64,000 nt of DNA. Origin: Alphaproteobacteria bacterium. GTDB taxonomy: Bacteria; Pseudomonadota; Alphaproteobacteria; Rs-D84. Under the pieces are notes generated by a model. That model made no database searches. It was not told the DNA's origin and saw nothing but the letters and a program-made list of their open reading frames with translations. Below are positions 24,618 through 62,646 of the stretch, piece by piece. The translations under genes were made by a program, and so were the position numbers. The stretch is from contig JAFXPG010000010.1 in the NCBI GenBank assembly GCA_017528045.1, forward strand, positions 13,968 to 77,967. Reading direction: 5' to 3'. Each line of letters starts with the position of its first letter. The stretch's first letter is position 1.

Positions 24618-24646
24618 TTGTGTAAAAAAATGGGTTTTGCTAAAAT
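24618..24646 (+). promoter_or_regulatory. sigma70-like promoter of leader/cassette A (TTGTGT-17 nt-TAAAAT)
   Basis: Hexamers with 17-nt spacing. The -10 lies 6 nt upstream of the conserved GTCAG, the same geometry as in copy B. Confidence 0.55.
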
Positions 24647-24652
24647 CACATC

Positions 24653-24865
24653 GTCAGAAAGAGTTTTTCTGATGGGGTGTCAAGGCCCGTTCAGCATGCG
24701 TCTGTGTTACGGACGTTAAATATCTCCAACTAAAACATGGTTGGAGGGTTGCGATATACATAAATAAGCACACAATTTCATGTTGAATTGTCTTGAACCT
24801 CCAACCGCCTGAATTTTTCCGGCGGTTCTTTAGTTTTTGCTGCAGTGAAACAAAAAAGGGAAACC
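24653..24865 (+). promoter_or_regulatory. conserved structured 5' leader (candidate attenuator / riboswitch-like element), copy A
   Basis: G+C-richer non-coding stretch. Hairpins P1 24654-24672, X:Y 24724-24730/24740-24746 and P4 24772-24791, alternative strand X' 24798-24806, and a terminator. Colinear with copy B on the opposite strand. Confidence 0.6.
24803..24838 (+). terminator. leader (attenuator) intrinsic terminator, copy A
   Basis: AACCGCC-11 nt-GGCGGTT followed by TCTTTAGTTTTT, about 30 nt upstream of the start codon. Confidence 0.65.
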
Positions 24866-25624
24866 ATGAAAAGATTCATATTATTTATACCTGTATCATT
24901 TATGTGCACATTTGCATTTGCACATACAATAAATTGGCATGTTGATGGCAATACATATCAAACAACAACATGTAATATCGGTAATGATGTGATACTGCCA
25001 AACACACCAACAAAACGCGGATATACATTTAAAGGTTGGGAAGAAGAACATTTTTTAAGGGGTCAATTTGAAACATGGACAGATGTTCCAACAACAGACT
25101 TAAGGTATTTACGTGATATTTATAACAATCGTGTTCCAGCCCACTCAGATTACATTATCGTAGAAGATGCCAGTGATTACGTTCCTCTTACATTCAATGA
25201 TAGTTTTGAATTTTGGAATGTATCACATAATTATCAAACTATATGGGCACACAGATATAACGATACAACCGTACAAAAATCAGTGGTATATACATCTGGT
25301 AATGCGCTTAAACCAGAAGAGAATTGGTGGGATTATTTTGGTCCAAATAACGAAATATTAATAAAACGTATAAACGGAAATATAATTGTAATTGCTCAAA
25401 CAACGTTGCGCTTTAATGGGCAAGCATATACTTCAGGACAAACCATATTATCAACAAATCTAAACGATTCATCAAATGATCATAATACACATGTTGTTGA
25501 ATTTTTATCAGGTACATATCAAACAATAGAAGGCAGATGGAAATTTATTTATTCTGGTACATGGGACACAGATGGAAAAATTGGTTGGATACCAGATCAA
25601 CAAATTTCAAATACACTTGAATAA
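24866..25624 (+). CDS. secreted protein with N-terminal Listeria-Bacteroides (InlB B-repeat-like) repeat; cassette A gene 1
   Basis: Signal peptide MKRFILFIPVSFMCTFAFA. TINWHVDGNTYQTTTCNIGNDVILPNTPTKRGYTFKGW fits the P..P.K.GY.F.GW repeat pattern (Flg_new/PF09479-like). The remaining ~190 aa are unrecognised. Paralog of 55955..56695. Confidence 0.6.
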   Translation: MKRFILFIPVSFMCTFAFAHTINWHVDGNTYQTTTCNIGNDVILPNTPTKRGYTFKGWEEEHFLRGQFETWTDVPTTDLRYLRDIYNNRVPAHSDYIIVEDASDYVPLTFNDSFEFWNVSHNYQTIWAHRYNDTTVQKSVVYTSGNALKPEENWWDYFGPNNEILIKRINGNIIVIAQTTLRFNGQAYTSGQTILSTNLNDSSNDHNTHVVEFLSGTYQTIEGRWKFIYSGTWDTDGKIGWIPDQQISNTLE

Positions 25625-25628
25625 TGAC

Positions 25629-26363
25629 ATGAAAATATTTTTGATTTATGTTTTTATTTTATTACCAAGTTCTGTTGTTGCAGAACCCCTGTTTAACACA
25701 GACATTATTAATGGTTGTGGAAACAGTTCTTATTACAAAGCTATCTTAGAAACAAATACTTATAATTGTTCAAATGGTTATTATTTACCAGCTGGTGGAA
25801 TATCTTGCGAAACTTGTCCGATTAATCATACCTGCAATGGTGGATTTTTTGTATACAACCCCACTATAACTCAGGGTTTAGAAGATGGAAATATACTTGT
25901 TCAAAATGTTACAGGTGGCTGTTTAAATAATTTTGGTCAAAACTTTTCTGCTGTATTTATTTTAAATAGTTATAATTGTTCACCCGGTTATTACTTACCT
26001 GCGAACTTTGATGAATGTCGTCCATGTTTATTAAATCATTATTGCGTTGGTGGAACGTATAGTTTTAATGAAACAACCGATCAAGGTATAGAAGAATGTC
26101 CATCAATGCGACCATTTGCACCGGTTAATTCGGATATATGTTATGCACATATATTACATGTTGGTAACGATATAATATATTTGCGTTCTAATAAATTAAC
26201 CACACCATCTTTAAATGTTGCATATGGAAATGAAGTATTTTATACGAATATGACAACGACACCAACATACATGACGTCCGGTTCATCGCATTATTTCAAA
26301 ACGATTTATAATAACACAGAATATTATATTTGTGATGATACAACATATAATGTTGAAGATTAA
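25629..26363 (+). CDS. secreted Cys-rich protein with two furin-like/ephrin-receptor-like (GCC2_GCC3-like) repeats; cassette A gene 2
   Basis: Signal peptide MKIFLIYVFILLPSSVVA. Two repeats of YNCS.GYYLPA-x5-C-x2-C-x2-NH-x-C-x-GG...N.T..QG.E. 13 Cys in the mature part. Paralog of 55203..55958. Confidence 0.6.
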   Translation: MKIFLIYVFILLPSSVVAEPLFNTDIINGCGNSSYYKAILETNTYNCSNGYYLPAGGISCETCPINHTCNGGFFVYNPTITQGLEDGNILVQNVTGGCLNNFGQNFSAVFILNSYNCSPGYYLPANFDECRPCLLNHYCVGGTYSFNETTDQGIEECPSMRPFAPVNSDICYAHILHVGNDIIYLRSNKLTTPSLNVAYGNEVFYTNMTTTPTYMTSGSSHYFKTIYNNTEYYICDDTTYNVED

Positions 26364-54432: not shown

Positions 54433-55206
54433 ATGAAAATATTGACATTAAACATAAACTCTATACGTGCCCATATTGAAAGTTTTATGGATATTTTACG
54501 TTCTGGTGAATACGACACAATATTAGTTCAAGAATTAAAAGTAGAAAATGCTAATTTTCCATATAATTTATTAGATGAATATGGTTACAACATCAAAATT
54601 TTTGGTCAAAAATCTTGGAATGGTGTTGCAATATTTTCTAAACATTCAATTGAAGACGTTACAATGGGTATGCCAACATATCCAGATATAAATTCCAGAT
54701 TTCTTGAATGTGTAATTGATGGTCATGTTCGTGTAATTAATGTATATATGCCAAATGGTGACAATATAGAATCACCAAAATTCCCATATAAATTAGAATG
54801 GATGCGTGCTTTTACCGAATACATCAAACAATACATTGATTCCGAAGAACCGGTCATAATTGGTGGCGATTACAACGTATCTATTGAAGACAGGGATATT
54901 TGGAACCCTAAAAATTATATAGGGTCTTCTATTTCAGCACCGGCAGCACGCGAAATAATGCAACAATGGCTGGATTCTGGTTGGATTGATGCATGGCGTA
55001 CATTACATCCGGATGAAAACGATTATACTTGGTATGGGTATCGTGGCCGAGACACAGTTGGCAACAACCAAGGTTTAAGACTAGATTATTTTTTATGTAA
55101 TAAACGCGCAGCTAAAATAATTAAAAATTGCGAAATAGACAAAGAACCACGTCTGGCCGAAAAACCAACCGACCATTGTGGTTTAATGATTGAATTGAAA
55201 GATTAA
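54433..55206 (+). CDS. xth: exodeoxyribonuclease III
   Basis: EEP-fold motifs: LNINSIRA, VQELK, NGVAI, GGDYNV, and C-terminal TDHCGLMIEL. Confidence 0.9.
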   Translation: MKILTLNINSIRAHIESFMDILRSGEYDTILVQELKVENANFPYNLLDEYGYNIKIFGQKSWNGVAIFSKHSIEDVTMGMPTYPDINSRFLECVIDGHVRVINVYMPNGDNIESPKFPYKLEWMRAFTEYIKQYIDSEEPVIIGGDYNVSIEDRDIWNPKNYIGSSISAPAAREIMQQWLDSGWIDAWRTLHPDENDYTWYGYRGRDTVGNNQGLRLDYFLCNKRAAKIIKNCEIDKEPRLAEKPTDHCGLMIELKD

Positions 55207-55958
55207 TCATTTCTACATTCTGGAACACTATCATCACATATTAAATATTCGACATCACCAATCATTACATGTAACCCTTTTGACATACCTTCGGACATTT
55301 TTGGAAAAGTATATGAATTCATGTCTCTGGGGACTGCATTTGCCGAATATATACCGTTATGGTGTCCAATAAATAATCTATGGACTGTTGGATGTGCTGG
55401 TGATTGGTGCATGTATAAAATATCTTCACCAACATGTAATTTTCGACCACATTGACTTGACAGCCACATGCCAGCCGGAGCAAATGGATGGTTGCCCGGA
55501 CATTCTATGATTCCTTGTGGTGTTGTTTCATTAAATGTTAAATTACCACCAGGACAATAGTGGTCATTTAAACATTTTGTACATTCAACACTATTTGCCG
55601 GCAAATAATAACCAGGACTACAATTACGTTCCGCAATCTTAAAGTTTGCATATAACATCCTTGGGAAATTTTCAGAACAAACATTGTTGGCTGATTTTGT
55701 TATCTTTTGTGTATAATCTATTCCCGAAGATTTAGTTTCGTTAAATAATAATTCACCACCAGAACAAGTATAACCATTTGGGCAATTTGAACAAACAACA
55801 GAATTCGCGGGTAAAAATTGATTAATATCACAAACTATAGATTTATTAGAAAATTTTGCCACAAGCTGCAAACCATAAAAACATTCTATTTTATCATCCG
55901 CAAAAACAGACGAAAATAAAAATAAAAACACTGTAAAAAACATAATTTTTATTATCAT
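55203..55958 (-). CDS. secreted Cys-rich protein with furin-like/ephrin-receptor-like repeats; cassette B gene 2
   Basis: Signal peptide MIIKIMFFTVFLFLFSSVFA. Repeat NCSPGYYLPANSVECTKCLNDHYCPGGNLTFNETTPQGIIECP plus a degenerate first repeat. 14 Cys. Paralog of 25629..26363. Confidence 0.6.
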   Translation of the reverse strand: MIIKIMFFTVFLFLFSSVFADDKIECFYGLQLVAKFSNKSIVCDINQFLPANSVVCSNCPNGYTCSGGELLFNETKSSGIDYTQKITKSANNVCSENFPRMLYANFKIAERNCSPGYYLPANSVECTKCLNDHYCPGGNLTFNETTPQGIIECPGNHPFAPAGMWLSSQCGRKLHVGEDILYMHQSPAHPTVHRLFIGHHNGIYSANAVPRDMNSYTFPKMSEGMSKGLHVMIGDVEYLICDDSVPECRND

Positions 55959-56695
55959 TGGTTTCCACCTAAATATTTTTCAGCAACCCATCCATTCTTT
56001 CCTGAGGCATCCCAATTATCAGACTGATATGAGAATCTCCAAGTACCTTCATAACCACTCTGTCCTGTAAAGTTGATTTCTTTATATAATGTTTCTTGAG
56101 ATGGTCTCGCGTAATGCCACTGTAATGCGATTTCATTGATTGGTTTTACTACACCATCTACAATTACTGGTACATCTAAAGGTGTCAATTTCCAAACTTC
56201 ACTAGCATAAGTAATTCTCAATTGATTACCATTAGTACCAATTATAAAACCTTTTGCACCTCTTTGAAAAACTTCATTGTGATTTAATGTTATATCAGTT
56301 GCACCAAATACAAATCTCGCAAATGCAGTACCACCACTCATTGGTTCGTTATAAATTTGTATAGGCATACCAGGTTTTACATAACCACTTGGATCTTCAA
56401 CTACCATATAATCTATATATGTTGGTTTAGTACTACCTGTATAATCTGGATAATAACTTCTATAATCTGTTGGTACTGTATCCCATGTACTAAATTTACC
56501 ACGATAAAAACTTGCGATCCAACCATCAAAATCATAACCGTGTTTTGATGGTTGGATTACTGGCAAATCTAAATCTTGGCCTATTTCACAAGTTGTTTGG
56601 TCATATAATTCGCCATCTTTATACCAATCCAGATTTATCGTATCTGCATTTGCGCCGAAACACAGCATTGATAATATTATTAAAATCTTTTTCAC
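55955..56695 (-). CDS. secreted protein with InlB B-repeat-like N-terminus; cassette B gene 1
   Basis: GTG 56695 follows AGGGAGAAAA. Signal peptide (V)KKILIILSMLCFGANA. TINLDWYKDGELYDQTTCEIGQDLDLPVIQPSKHGYDFDGW. C-terminal GTWRFSYQSDNWDASGKNGW parallels GRWKFIYSGTWDTDGKIGW of copy A. Confidence 0.6.
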   Translation of the reverse strand: MKKILIILSMLCFGANADTINLDWYKDGELYDQTTCEIGQDLDLPVIQPSKHGYDFDGWIASFYRGKFSTWDTVPTDYRSYYPDYTGSTKPTYIDYMVVEDPSGYVKPGMPIQIYNEPMSGGTAFARFVFGATDITLNHNEVFQRGAKGFIIGTNGNQLRITYASEVWKLTPLDVPVIVDGVVKPINEIALQWHYARPSQETLYKEINFTGQSGYEGTWRFSYQSDNWDASGKNGWVAEKYLGGNQ

Positions 56696-56895
56696 GATTT
56701 TCTCCCTGTTTGCTTTCAACAAAACACCGCCAGAAAATCGGGCGGTTGGAGGTTAGTTACAATTTAAACGGAAATTGTGCGCTTATTCAATATATTCACG
56801 ACCCTCCAACCATAACAGAGTTGGAGATTTTTTCGTCTTTACTTTGACGCCGTTTAATCGGGTAACTACACCCCATCAGCAAAACTCTTGCTGAC
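56696..56895 (-). promoter_or_regulatory. conserved structured 5' leader (candidate attenuator / riboswitch-like element), copy B
   Basis: P1 56876-56894, X 56820-56826, Y 56802-56811, P4 56759-56778 and X' 56744-56752. Colinear with copy A. Confidence 0.6.
56718..56747 (-). terminator. leader (attenuator) intrinsic terminator, copy B
   Basis: On the minus strand: AACCGCC-CGATTTTCT-GGCGGTG followed by TTTTGTT, about 20 nt before the start codon. Confidence 0.6.
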
Positions 56896-56901
56896 AAATT
56901 T

Positions 56902-56930
56902 ATTATAAAATATACACCGTAAAATGTAAA
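56902..56930 (-). promoter_or_regulatory. sigma70-like promoter of leader/cassette B (TTTACA-17 nt-TATAAT)
   Basis: Near-consensus hexamers on the minus strand. The -10 lies 6 nt upstream of the conserved GTCAG. Confidence 0.65.
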
Positions 56931-62463: not shown

Positions 62464-62538
62464 GCGAGCATAGTTCAAAGGCTAGAATGCAAGCCTTCCA
62501 AGCTTGAAATGAGGGTTCGATTCCCTCTGCTCGCACCA
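62464..62538 (+). tRNA. tRNA-Gly (anticodon UCC), CCA encoded
   Basis: Hand-folded cloverleaf: acceptor GCGAGCA/TGCTCGC, anticodon stem CAAGC/GCTTG with loop CTTCCAA, T arm GAGGG-TTCGATT-CCCTC. 75 nt. Confidence 0.9.
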
Positions 62539-62559: not shown

Positions 62560-62646
62560 GGGCGTGCGCCGGAGTTGGAGAGCCGGGGCAGACTGTAAAT
62601 CTGTTGTCTTACGACTGAGGTGGTTCGAATCCACCCACTCCCACCA
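62560..62646 (+). tRNA. tRNA-Tyr (anticodon GUA), long variable arm, CCA encoded
   Basis: Acceptor GGGCGTG/CACTCCC (one C-U mismatch at 4:69), D stem CCGG/CCGG, anticodon loop CTGTAAA, 14-nt variable arm, T arm GGTGG-TTCGAAT-CCACC. 87 nt. Confidence 0.85.

Follow-up and report, generated by a model that had tools for sequence, protein, structure and literature searches.

A multi-copy leader RNA with two alternative folds, a probable transcription attenuator of gut Alphaproteobacteria of the order Rs-D84

What does a leader sequence do that stands, in two inverted copies, in front of paralogous operons? The question is raised by a 64,000-nucleotide stretch of DNA, here called the window, from an Alphaproteobacteria bacterium of the lineage Rs-D84 (assembly GCA_017528045.1, contig JAFXPG010000010.1), in which copy B of the leader lies at 56930-56693 on the minus strand and the homologous copy A at 24618-24868 on the plus strand. 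A preliminary description of the window had taken the leader for a functional RNA and not for the product of a recent duplication, and had proposed a search for further copies. This view is supported by a family of more than 130 copies in about 90 genomes, whose helices covary and are kept while their sequences change. The helices of two alternative folds, the overlap of one of their strands with a U-tailed hairpin, and a fixed promoter were observed across the family. Judged by these sequences, the leader is likely a cis-acting transcription attenuator, in which a hairpin named P4, an antiterminator and a terminator would compete. We infer that the U-tailed hairpin stops transcription and that an effector sets the choice of fold.

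Read along the minus strand, copy B comprises a promoter, the hairpin P1, a structured stretch of about 130 nucleotides, a G+C-rich hairpin with a U-rich tail, a ribosome-binding site and a GTG start codon; the structured leader is about 180 nucleotides long. The parts referred to below are as follows.

56925-56930, minus: -35 hexamer TTTACA; together with the -10 hexamer an 11/12 match, with a 17-nucleotide spacer.
56902-56907, minus: -10 hexamer TATAAT, ending 6 nucleotides ahead of the first base of P1.
56875-56895, minus: P1 hairpin at the RNA 5' end, GUCAGCAA-GAGUU-UUGCUGAU; one compensatory pair relative to copy A.
56859-56874, minus: P2 hairpin, a covarying helix, with GGGG at 56871-56874 and CCCG at 56859-56862.
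56862-56868, minus: Y, UAGUUAC, within the P2 loop; partner of Y'.
56850-56857, minus: X, UUAAACGG; partner of X' at 56764-56771.
56834-56849, minus: P3a hairpin, CGUC-AAAGUAAA-GACG; 92% paired in the family, with covariation at all 4 pairs.
56827-56833, minus: A-rich linker after P3a.
56804-56826, minus: P4 hairpin, with CUCCAAC at 56820-56826, a loop, and GUUGGAG at 56804-56810; the strands co-vary in variant copies.
56803-56811, minus: shared middle strand GGUUGGAGG; partner either CUCCAAC (P4) or CCUCCAACC (antiterminator), with the column pair 119-200 being GC in 103 and UA in 5 copies.
56780-56800, minus: P5 stem (CGU/GCG) around the highly conserved loop GAAUAUAUUGAAUAA; pair types GC, UA, CG and UG.
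56760-56777, minus: P6 hairpin, CAAUU-...-AAUUG, whose loop and 3' side hold X'; column pair 165-188 is UA in 72 and AU in 31 copies.
56764-56771, minus: X', CCGUUUAA, in the loop and 3' side of P6; partner of X.
56754-56760, minus: Y', GUAACUA; pairs with Y, 98% paired, with covariation at all 7 pairs.
56744-56752, minus: CCUCCAACC, 3' strand of the antiterminator; its final four bases open the 5' arm of the putative terminator.
56726-56747, minus: terminator-like hairpin, AACCGCC-CGAUUUUCU-GGCGGU, with the U-rich tail GUUUUGUU at 56718-56725.
56693-56706, minus: ribosome-binding site GGGAGA at 56701-56706 and GTG start codon of the first gene at 56693-56695.

Within the window, the core blocks of the leader are confined to its two places, against about 0.1-0.4 occurrences expected by chance. 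Folding of both leaders is more favorable than in 200 of 200 shuffled sequences (z = -3.4 and -4.2). Further copies were collected with the pattern CTCCAAC-N4-16-GTTGGAGG-N30-60-CCTCCAACC, scanned over one genome per bacterial or archaeal species, which gave at least 120 loci, nearly all in metagenome-assembled genomes from the gut. A covariance model, R1, was then built from 44 diverse copies. It gave 110 and 26 matches with 62-127 bits on the fetched loci (cited below as L with a number and positions), while in the window it found only copies A and B, with 99.8 and 113.3 bits, respectively.

The two folds, referred to as fold T and fold AT, were evaluated in the model-guided alignment. Fold T comprises Y:Y', X:X', P3a, P4 and P5. 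In this fold, 95.8% of the cells are paired, compared with 72.5% in shuffles, and the covariation score is 0.58, compared with 0.155; none of 500 shuffles reached the observed value, and in a control with the partners slid by 1-3 columns the score was at most 0.073. Two-sided changes were observed at every pair of Y:Y', X:X', P3a and P5. Fold AT comprises P2, P3a, the antiterminator GGUUGGAGG:CCUCCAACC, P5 and P6, with 94.0% of cells paired against 83.7% in shuffles and a score of 0.303 against 0.125, again reached by 0 of 500 shuffles. Additionally, RNAalifold applied to a plain MAFFT alignment independently gave P2, P5, P6 and the antiterminator; an example of the exchanges in P2 is the column pair 4-20, found as GC in 58, AU in 24 and GU in 21 copies.

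Alignment-free tests compared the arms of each copy with arms from other copies. For X:X', the arms of one copy form 8.2 base pairs on average, with 110 distinct sequences in 116 copies, and score 18.5 with their own partner against 10.6 with partners from other copies. P1 behaves in the same way (mean 8.5 base pairs, 96 distinct sequences, 16.7 against 10.3 with swapped arms), and the permutation test of Y:Y' had an outcome similar to that of X:X'. Furthermore, G-U pairs outnumber A-C pairs 178 to 39 (4.6-fold), which places the selected structure on the strand of the downstream gene. The folds are mutually exclusive because GGUUGGAGG is unable to pair with two partners at once. The conflict extends to other columns, such as C16-G190 in fold T against C16-G6 and G190-C163 in fold AT, and the outer pairs of X:X' draw on bases of P6.

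In the proposed mechanism, the transcript would begin about 6-7 nucleotides past the -10 box and open with P1. In fold T, Y in the P2 loop would pair with Y', and X with X' in the P6 loop, closing a four-way junction of P3a, P4 and P5; CCUCCAACC would be left free, its AACC and the next bases would form an intrinsic terminator, and the gene would be off. In fold AT, CCUCCAACC would land on the unpaired GG after P4 and displace CUCCAAC, giving a 9-base-pair antiterminator, GGUUGGAGG:CCUCCAACC, with P2, P5 and P6 as simple hairpins on its flanks. The terminator would be robbed of its 5' arm and RNA polymerase would enter the gene. P4 would act as the anti-antiterminator, GGUUGGAGG:CCUCCAACC as the antiterminator, and AACC with the following bases as the terminator. 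Fold T leaves the two G after P4 unpaired; they are complementary to the first CC of the 3' element and could provide the foothold for strand displacement.

Copies in which the switch strands themselves have changed are the most direct view of this competition. In all copies found by the model only, the three strands change together, as in the versions listed here with the P4 5' strand, the middle strand and the 3' element in this order.

Canonical switch: CUCCAAC; GGUUGGAGG; CCUCCAACC.
L118:538-694, L107:912-1072 and L229:715-880: CUCCUGA; GUCAGGAGG (short form UCAGGAGG); CCUCCUGACC.
L020:6076-6202: CUUCUGC; UGCAGGAGG (short form GCAGGAGG); CCUCCUGCC (short form CCUCCUGC).
Five copies in alignment A5 and more in A6: CUCCAAC; GGUUGGAGU; ACUCCAACC.

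The A5/A6 variant, GGAGU/ACUCC, replaces G-C by U-A at a position paired in the antiterminator only. The 5' arms of the variant terminators track the new sequence, for example GACCACC...GGUGGUU. Canonical and variant copies were found on the same contig in L118 (5070-5200 and 538-694), L107 (480-619 and 912-1072) and L020 (1977-2110 and 6076-6202). The matching is therefore among the strands themselves, not with an outside partner shared by all copies, and a single trans-acting pairing partner for them is unlikely. Neither a trans partner nor extra copies of the P5 loop turned up in the window above chance level. In L118 and L107, the variant copies have in addition a much longer insertion in P3a, which includes a G+C-rich hairpin.

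The order of the parts is constant in all copies: extended -10 box, P1, P2, X, P3a, linker, P4, GG, P5, C-R-C, P6, Y', A, CCUCCAACC, putative terminator with its U tract, ribosome-binding site and start codon. A TANNNT -10 box at a fixed distance is present in 115 of 116 copies, with the TA..AT columns nearly invariant. In the family, P2 consists of GGGG, the loop bearing Y, and CCCN; P3a reads GYGUC...GACR and is missing in a short subtype; the P4 loop varies between 4 and 16 nucleotides; and P6 is either CUAU...AUAG or CAAU...AUUG with X' as its loop. P5 is a short stem with the loop GAAUA-UAUU-GAAUAA, whose bases are 95-100% conserved. In five members (L002, L026, L033, L098 and L107), an extra G+C-rich hairpin is inserted amid this loop, and such an insertion with a stem of variable length is expected of an RNA, not of a coding sequence. 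The conserved unpaired bases are those of the fold T junction (A-rich linker, GG, C.C-UAU) and of the P5 loop, while the junction of fold AT consists of the variable Y'. This distribution suggests fold T as the sensor-competent state to which the effector would bind, so that binding would favor termination. At the 3' end, the 5' arm of the hairpin begins inside the AACC of CCUCCAACC in 105 of 116 copies, and a U tract follows the 3' arm in 111 of 116 (at least 5 U in the next 9 nucleotides), with a mean stem of 6.9 base pairs. By its sequence, the leader hairpin would qualify as an intrinsic (Rho-independent) terminator.

Several observations weigh against a regulated attenuator or limit the evidence for it. 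The 121 copies gathered by the pattern had all three switch strands fixed by it, and for this reason only the model-only finds are informative on the switch; the covariation of the antiterminator stands on about three to four distinct sequence versions. The covariance-model alignment was fitted to the structure and leans to its own fold, which is why X:X', Y:Y' and P1 were tested alignment-free. Many copies are orthologues in related species, and cell counts overstate the number of independent events. The helix GGGG:CCUC, an outer helix of fold T, is pairable (89%), without covariation support and at a level no different from chance. A simple terminator scan passed over both hairpins of the window, because their loops of 9-11 nucleotides (9 in copy B) exceed 8 nucleotides. 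In nearest-neighbor energies, fold T lies about 12 kcal/mol below fold AT in 116 of 116 copies, with or without the terminator, and read-through would need a co-transcriptional trapping of fold AT or a factor. Finally, among 106 downstream proteins there is no common pathway or metabolic theme that would hint at a ligand, which is unusual for metabolite riboswitches.

The comparison of the two window copies bears on the simplest rival, that the similarity lies at the DNA level and that the RNA fold has no function. The parts of copy A and the genes behind both leaders are as follows.

24618-24623, plus: copy A, -35 element TTGTGT.
24638-24646, plus: copy A, extended -10 element TGcTAAAAT.
24653-24673, plus: copy A, P1.
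24672-24806, plus: copy A, core (99.8 bits with model R1), followed by the putative terminator at 24803-24827 and a U tract to 24838.
24866-25624 and 25629-26363, plus: paralogous two-gene operon of copy A (24866-26363).
55955-56695, minus: gene 1 of the copy B operon, a signal-peptide protein with an N-terminal Flg_new repeat.
55203-55958, minus: gene 2 of the copy B operon, a Cys-rich secreted protein.

All the sequence features that the preliminary description had read from these two copies were reproduced. The promoter TTTACA-17 nucleotides-TATAAT is present at 56930-56902 on the minus strand, and the -10 element ends 6 nucleotides ahead of GUCAG in copies A and B alike. P1 differs by one compensatory change from A-U to C-G (UCAGAAA-GAGUU-UUUCUGA in A, UCAGCAA-GAGUU-UUGCUGA in B). 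The blocks GAUGGGGUGU, AUCUCCAAC, GGUUGGAGGG, AAUAAGC.CACAAUUUC, AAUUGU and AACCUCCAACCGCC are identical in both copies, and the gapless 61 nucleotides from the end of GGUUGGAGGG to CCGCC hold exactly the 43 identities counted by hand. One correction concerns the free loops, which are themselves paired: the loop of the hairpin then called P4 (now P6, with X' as its loop) pairs with the upstream X in a long-range helix. The hairpin then called X:Y corresponds to P4 as defined here. The earlier map had missed the second partner of GGUUGGAGG, namely CCUCCAACC, which overlaps the terminator. In the present map, Y is the block after GGGGUGU and Y' the block before AACCUCC, and both X:X' and Y:Y' are compensated between copies A and B.

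The expectation that the leader is better conserved than its genes was also confirmed. The leaders share 133 of 177 aligned bases (75%). The first, Flg_new-type genes share 51.9% of their DNA and 46.5% of third codon positions, with a protein identity of 29% by BLASTP and 35% in a global alignment; for the second, Cys-rich genes these values are 52.7%, 42.6%, 36% and 39%. A leader divergence of 25% thus stands far below the 53-57% at third codon positions, and duplication alone is insufficient to account for it. A recent duplication, gene conversion of promoter regions within a variable family of surface proteins, or an attC-like site might still be considered, as the leaders precede paralogous genes for fast-evolving secreted proteins, and CTCCAAC/GTTGGAG match 6 of 7 positions each of the attC core RYYYAAC/GTTRRRY. 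We regard such an origin without RNA function as highly improbable, because more than 130 copies, found in about 90 genomes, keep complementarity while their sequences change, the surplus of G-U relative to A-C pairs points to selection on the transcribed strand, and gene conversion would not make compensated helices. The element is also flanked by a promoter and a ribosome-binding site and does not lie 3' of a promoterless cassette. An integron attC site was rejected by this 5' position, by the strand asymmetry, and by the variants CTCCTGA and CTTCTGC, which do not match the core.

If the RNA is functional, the remaining alternatives concern what acts on it. A ribosome on a short frame, starting at the AUG of GAUGGGG, could choose between P4 and the antiterminator; the AUG is present in both window copies, with the frame MGCQGPFSMRLCYGR followed by a stop codon in A and 26 codons running into P4 in B. 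This leader-peptide attenuator is scarcely credible, as just 34 of 110 aligned copies have ATG at this position, the frames vary in length from 3 to more than 40 codons, P1 ends directly at the AUG and leaves no ribosome-binding site ahead of it, and codon conservation does not go beyond the demands of the P2 helix. The terminated leader of about 180 nucleotides could also act in trans as one of a set of sibling small RNAs, with the genes expressed by leaky read-through. In favor of this, every copy has fold T with the terminator as its computed ground state, some copies stand in tandem or are not directly followed by an open reading frame (e.g. L120:396-517 and L072:3414-3534), and the C-rich CUCC motifs look like complements of ribosome-binding sites. 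These motifs, however, are buried in helices and covary with internal partners, 107 of 123 copies have a motif resembling a ribosome-binding site and an open reading frame closely downstream, and an antiterminator kept by compensatory change is only sensible if read-through is regulated. The small-RNA explanation therefore appears improbable as a replacement for attenuation; as an addition to it, a role in trans is possible.

A further alternative keeps the switch and replaces the ligand by an RNA-binding protein on the GAAUA...GAAUAA loop of P5 or on P4, in the manner of PyrR, TRAP or BglG-type regulators. The most conserved unpaired bases form the direct repeat GAAUA-N4-GAAUAA, which tolerates a hairpin inserted between its halves and would fit a site for a dimeric or two-domain protein. 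The targets resemble a regulon (surface proteins and regulators) more than a pathway, many leaders stand ahead of small helix-turn-helix (HTH) genes, as autoregulation would have it, and with fold T so strongly favored an active antiterminator factor would be useful. On the other hand, the analysis brought up no candidate for such a protein, the HTH proteins match DNA-binding XRE families (Pfam), the Rfam models of protein-binding leaders had no match, and a junction this elaborate, with its joining strands conserved, is more often a mark of ligand-binding aptamers. Taken together, a protein effector is a serious alternative, though less likely than not. Binding of a small ligand or ion to the conserved core of junction and P5, which would lock fold T and turn the attenuator into an OFF switch, is the explanation of fold choice that we tentatively put forward, at somewhat less than even chances. 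The wider proposal is a new class of riboswitch with a four-way-junction/pseudoknot sensor for a metabolite or second messenger newly linked to RNA, which would govern the entire repertoire of secreted or surface proteins and the XRE-type regulators of this host-associated order through dozens of copies per genome of about 0.9 Mb; this is conceivable and is offered with more reserve. Two features by which riboswitches are defined can be recognized in the aligned copies, namely a covarying, structured putative sensor domain and a sensor strand predicted to compete with the terminator.

Among known systems, transcriptional riboswitches (e.g. the purine, thiamine pyrophosphate and cyclic di-GMP classes) share with the leader a structured 5' region that follows a fixed promoter, covarying stems and a multi-helix junction whose joining strands are conserved, a 3' strand common to sensor and terminator, and occasional tandem copies. 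Like the leader, riboswitches for cyclic di-GMP occur in several copies per genome and ahead of surface-related genes. Unlike these classes, the leader has no match in Rfam 15, its targets share no pathway, it uses three copies of one element of 7-9 nucleotides, and its P4 lies inside the conserved junction. T-box leaders of Firmicutes are likewise present in multiple copies before different genes, with a conserved antiterminator opposed to a terminator, and their default termination overcome by a factor would fit the 12 kcal/mol preference for fold T. The leader, in contrast, has no T-box sequence, specifier loop or Stem I, the Rfam T-box model was silent, and the downstream genes are not aminoacyl-tRNA synthetases or amino-acid genes; the covariation of strands in versions coexisting in one genome excludes a fixed tRNA-end partner. 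Attenuators of the trp type (1:2, 2:3, 3:4) also build an anti-antiterminator, an antiterminator and a terminator from successive overlapping strands, but the leader has no leader peptide, and its anti-antiterminator is set within a large covarying fold with X:X' and Y:Y'. Protein-dependent leaders (PyrR, TRAP, BglG/LicT RAT, ANTAR) resemble it in their regulon-like targets, in the repeated motif, here GAAUA twice, and in the competition of terminator and antiterminator. They differ in that no GAG/UAG repeats, RAT (ribonucleic antiterminator) hairpin, ANTAR dual hexaloops or PyrR-binding loop were seen in the leader, and no Rfam match was obtained where models exist.

At the gathering thresholds of Rfam 15 (4227 models), the window gives two tRNAs and nothing for the leaders, and a permissive search with both leaders (E up to 10) gave unrelated chance matches that differ between the copies (sroD with 18 bits, small nucleolar RNAs). 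In the literature searched on the lineage, on the sequence blocks and on riboswitches in Rs-D84/RF32, no description of the leader RNA was found. We rate the leader as a new RNA fold on a known regulatory principle, outside the described families. Its unusual traits are the three exchanging copies of one element, the anti-antiterminator in a conserved junction, and the spread over surface-protein and regulator genes of a reduced genome.

Downstream of the leader, a start codon with a motif resembling a ribosome-binding site and an open reading frame of at least 50 amino acids were found within 260 nucleotides in 107 of 123 pattern-matched copies, window copies included, and the start codons are nearly always 34-100 nucleotides away. 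Most of the 106 downstream proteins scanned with Pfam have a signal peptide and no match. The matches obtained were HTH_31 (12), HTH_3 (9), HTH_19 (7), Flg_new (9), Ephrin_rec_like (2) and an EcoRI methylase (1). Types that recur are proteins with Flg_new repeats, like that of the first gene in the window, Cys-rich proteins, and short ones bearing the motif ANQTMAGTYTVSG; small XRE-type helix-turn-helix proteins form the second large group. The subtype of the leader tracks the gene family, with the short form lacking P3a in front of HTH proteins of 69-76 amino acids. A module placed ahead of many secreted, adhesin-like proteins and of the few transcription factors that these bacteria have would be a central control point for how these cells present themselves to a host or partner cell. 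The large covarying fold, with both states visibly under selection, would offer a natural model of strand-displacement switching, and the family is a strong candidate for an orphan riboswitch that is open to in vitro work although the organisms cannot be grown.

The genomes at the pattern loci are labeled Candidatus Enterousia, Alphaproteobacteria or Rickettsiales, and their gut sources are humans, ruminants, deer, horses, chickens and termites. Several copies occur per genome, with at least five from RUG12675 among the matches listed. Candidatus Enterousia belongs to Rs-D84, an uncultured order that resides in the guts of humans, ruminants, horses, birds and termites, with genomes mostly below 1 Mb and a largely unknown physiology (PMC12306168). 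A mainly phage-borne element was rejected, as among viral contigs (IMG/VR) the pattern was found in just three (L122:12038-12172, L123:786-920 and L121:1174-1243). The copies on these contigs are canonical leaders, two of them identical at 115.9 bits.

A metagenome scan with the 19-mer of the P5 loop, GYGAATATATTGAATAARC, was aimed at copies without fixing the three switch strands. It returned five real copies only, and about 110 of its 120 loci belong to an unrelated interspersed repeat of about 190 nucleotides (L124-L243, e.g. L142:7340-7530, L180, L185). Open reading frames are almost absent from the contigs with this repeat, and the names of their JGI metagenome records point to termite guts; the repeat is probably termite host DNA. 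It has a CCUCC..GGAGG hairpin beside the 19-mer, reaches 25-33 bits with R1 and matches no Rfam family, and its likeness to the leader is treated as a coincidence.

Complete leaders were also found in tandem, about 70-120 nucleotides apart and each with its own -10 box (L072:3414-3534/3608-3735 and L120:396-517/636-763). The first copy of L120 has a putative terminator and no reading frame ahead of the next promoter, and the first copy of L072 has no recognizable terminator. An outlier among the downstream genes is an EcoRI-type adenine methyltransferase at L081:1182-2216 (Pfam E = 1e-122). In both window operons, the Cys-rich gene nearly abuts the first gene (55955-55958; 25572-25629), and in the copy B operon the stop and start codons overlap as ATGA at 55955-55958. 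The Cys-rich proteins show weak matches to the eukaryote-type repeats Ephrin_rec_like, DUF7630 and DUF7631. The P1 sequence of the window, GUCAGCAAGAGUUUUGCUGAU, was found unchanged in L017, L076, L102 and L117; an orthologous Flg_new-type gene lies behind the first three of these leaders, and no downstream gene was identified for L117. On the plus strand, the complement of P1 with CAAATTTATT at 56876-56894 was flagged as terminator-like by the simple scan, probably as a mere mirror image of P1. At 32%, the G+C content of the window is well under that of the leader cores from the fetched loci (38-54%). The two tRNA genes of the window are adjacent on the plus strand, at 62464-62535 and 62560-62643 (72.1 and 38.5 bits in Rfam), the second with a long variable arm.

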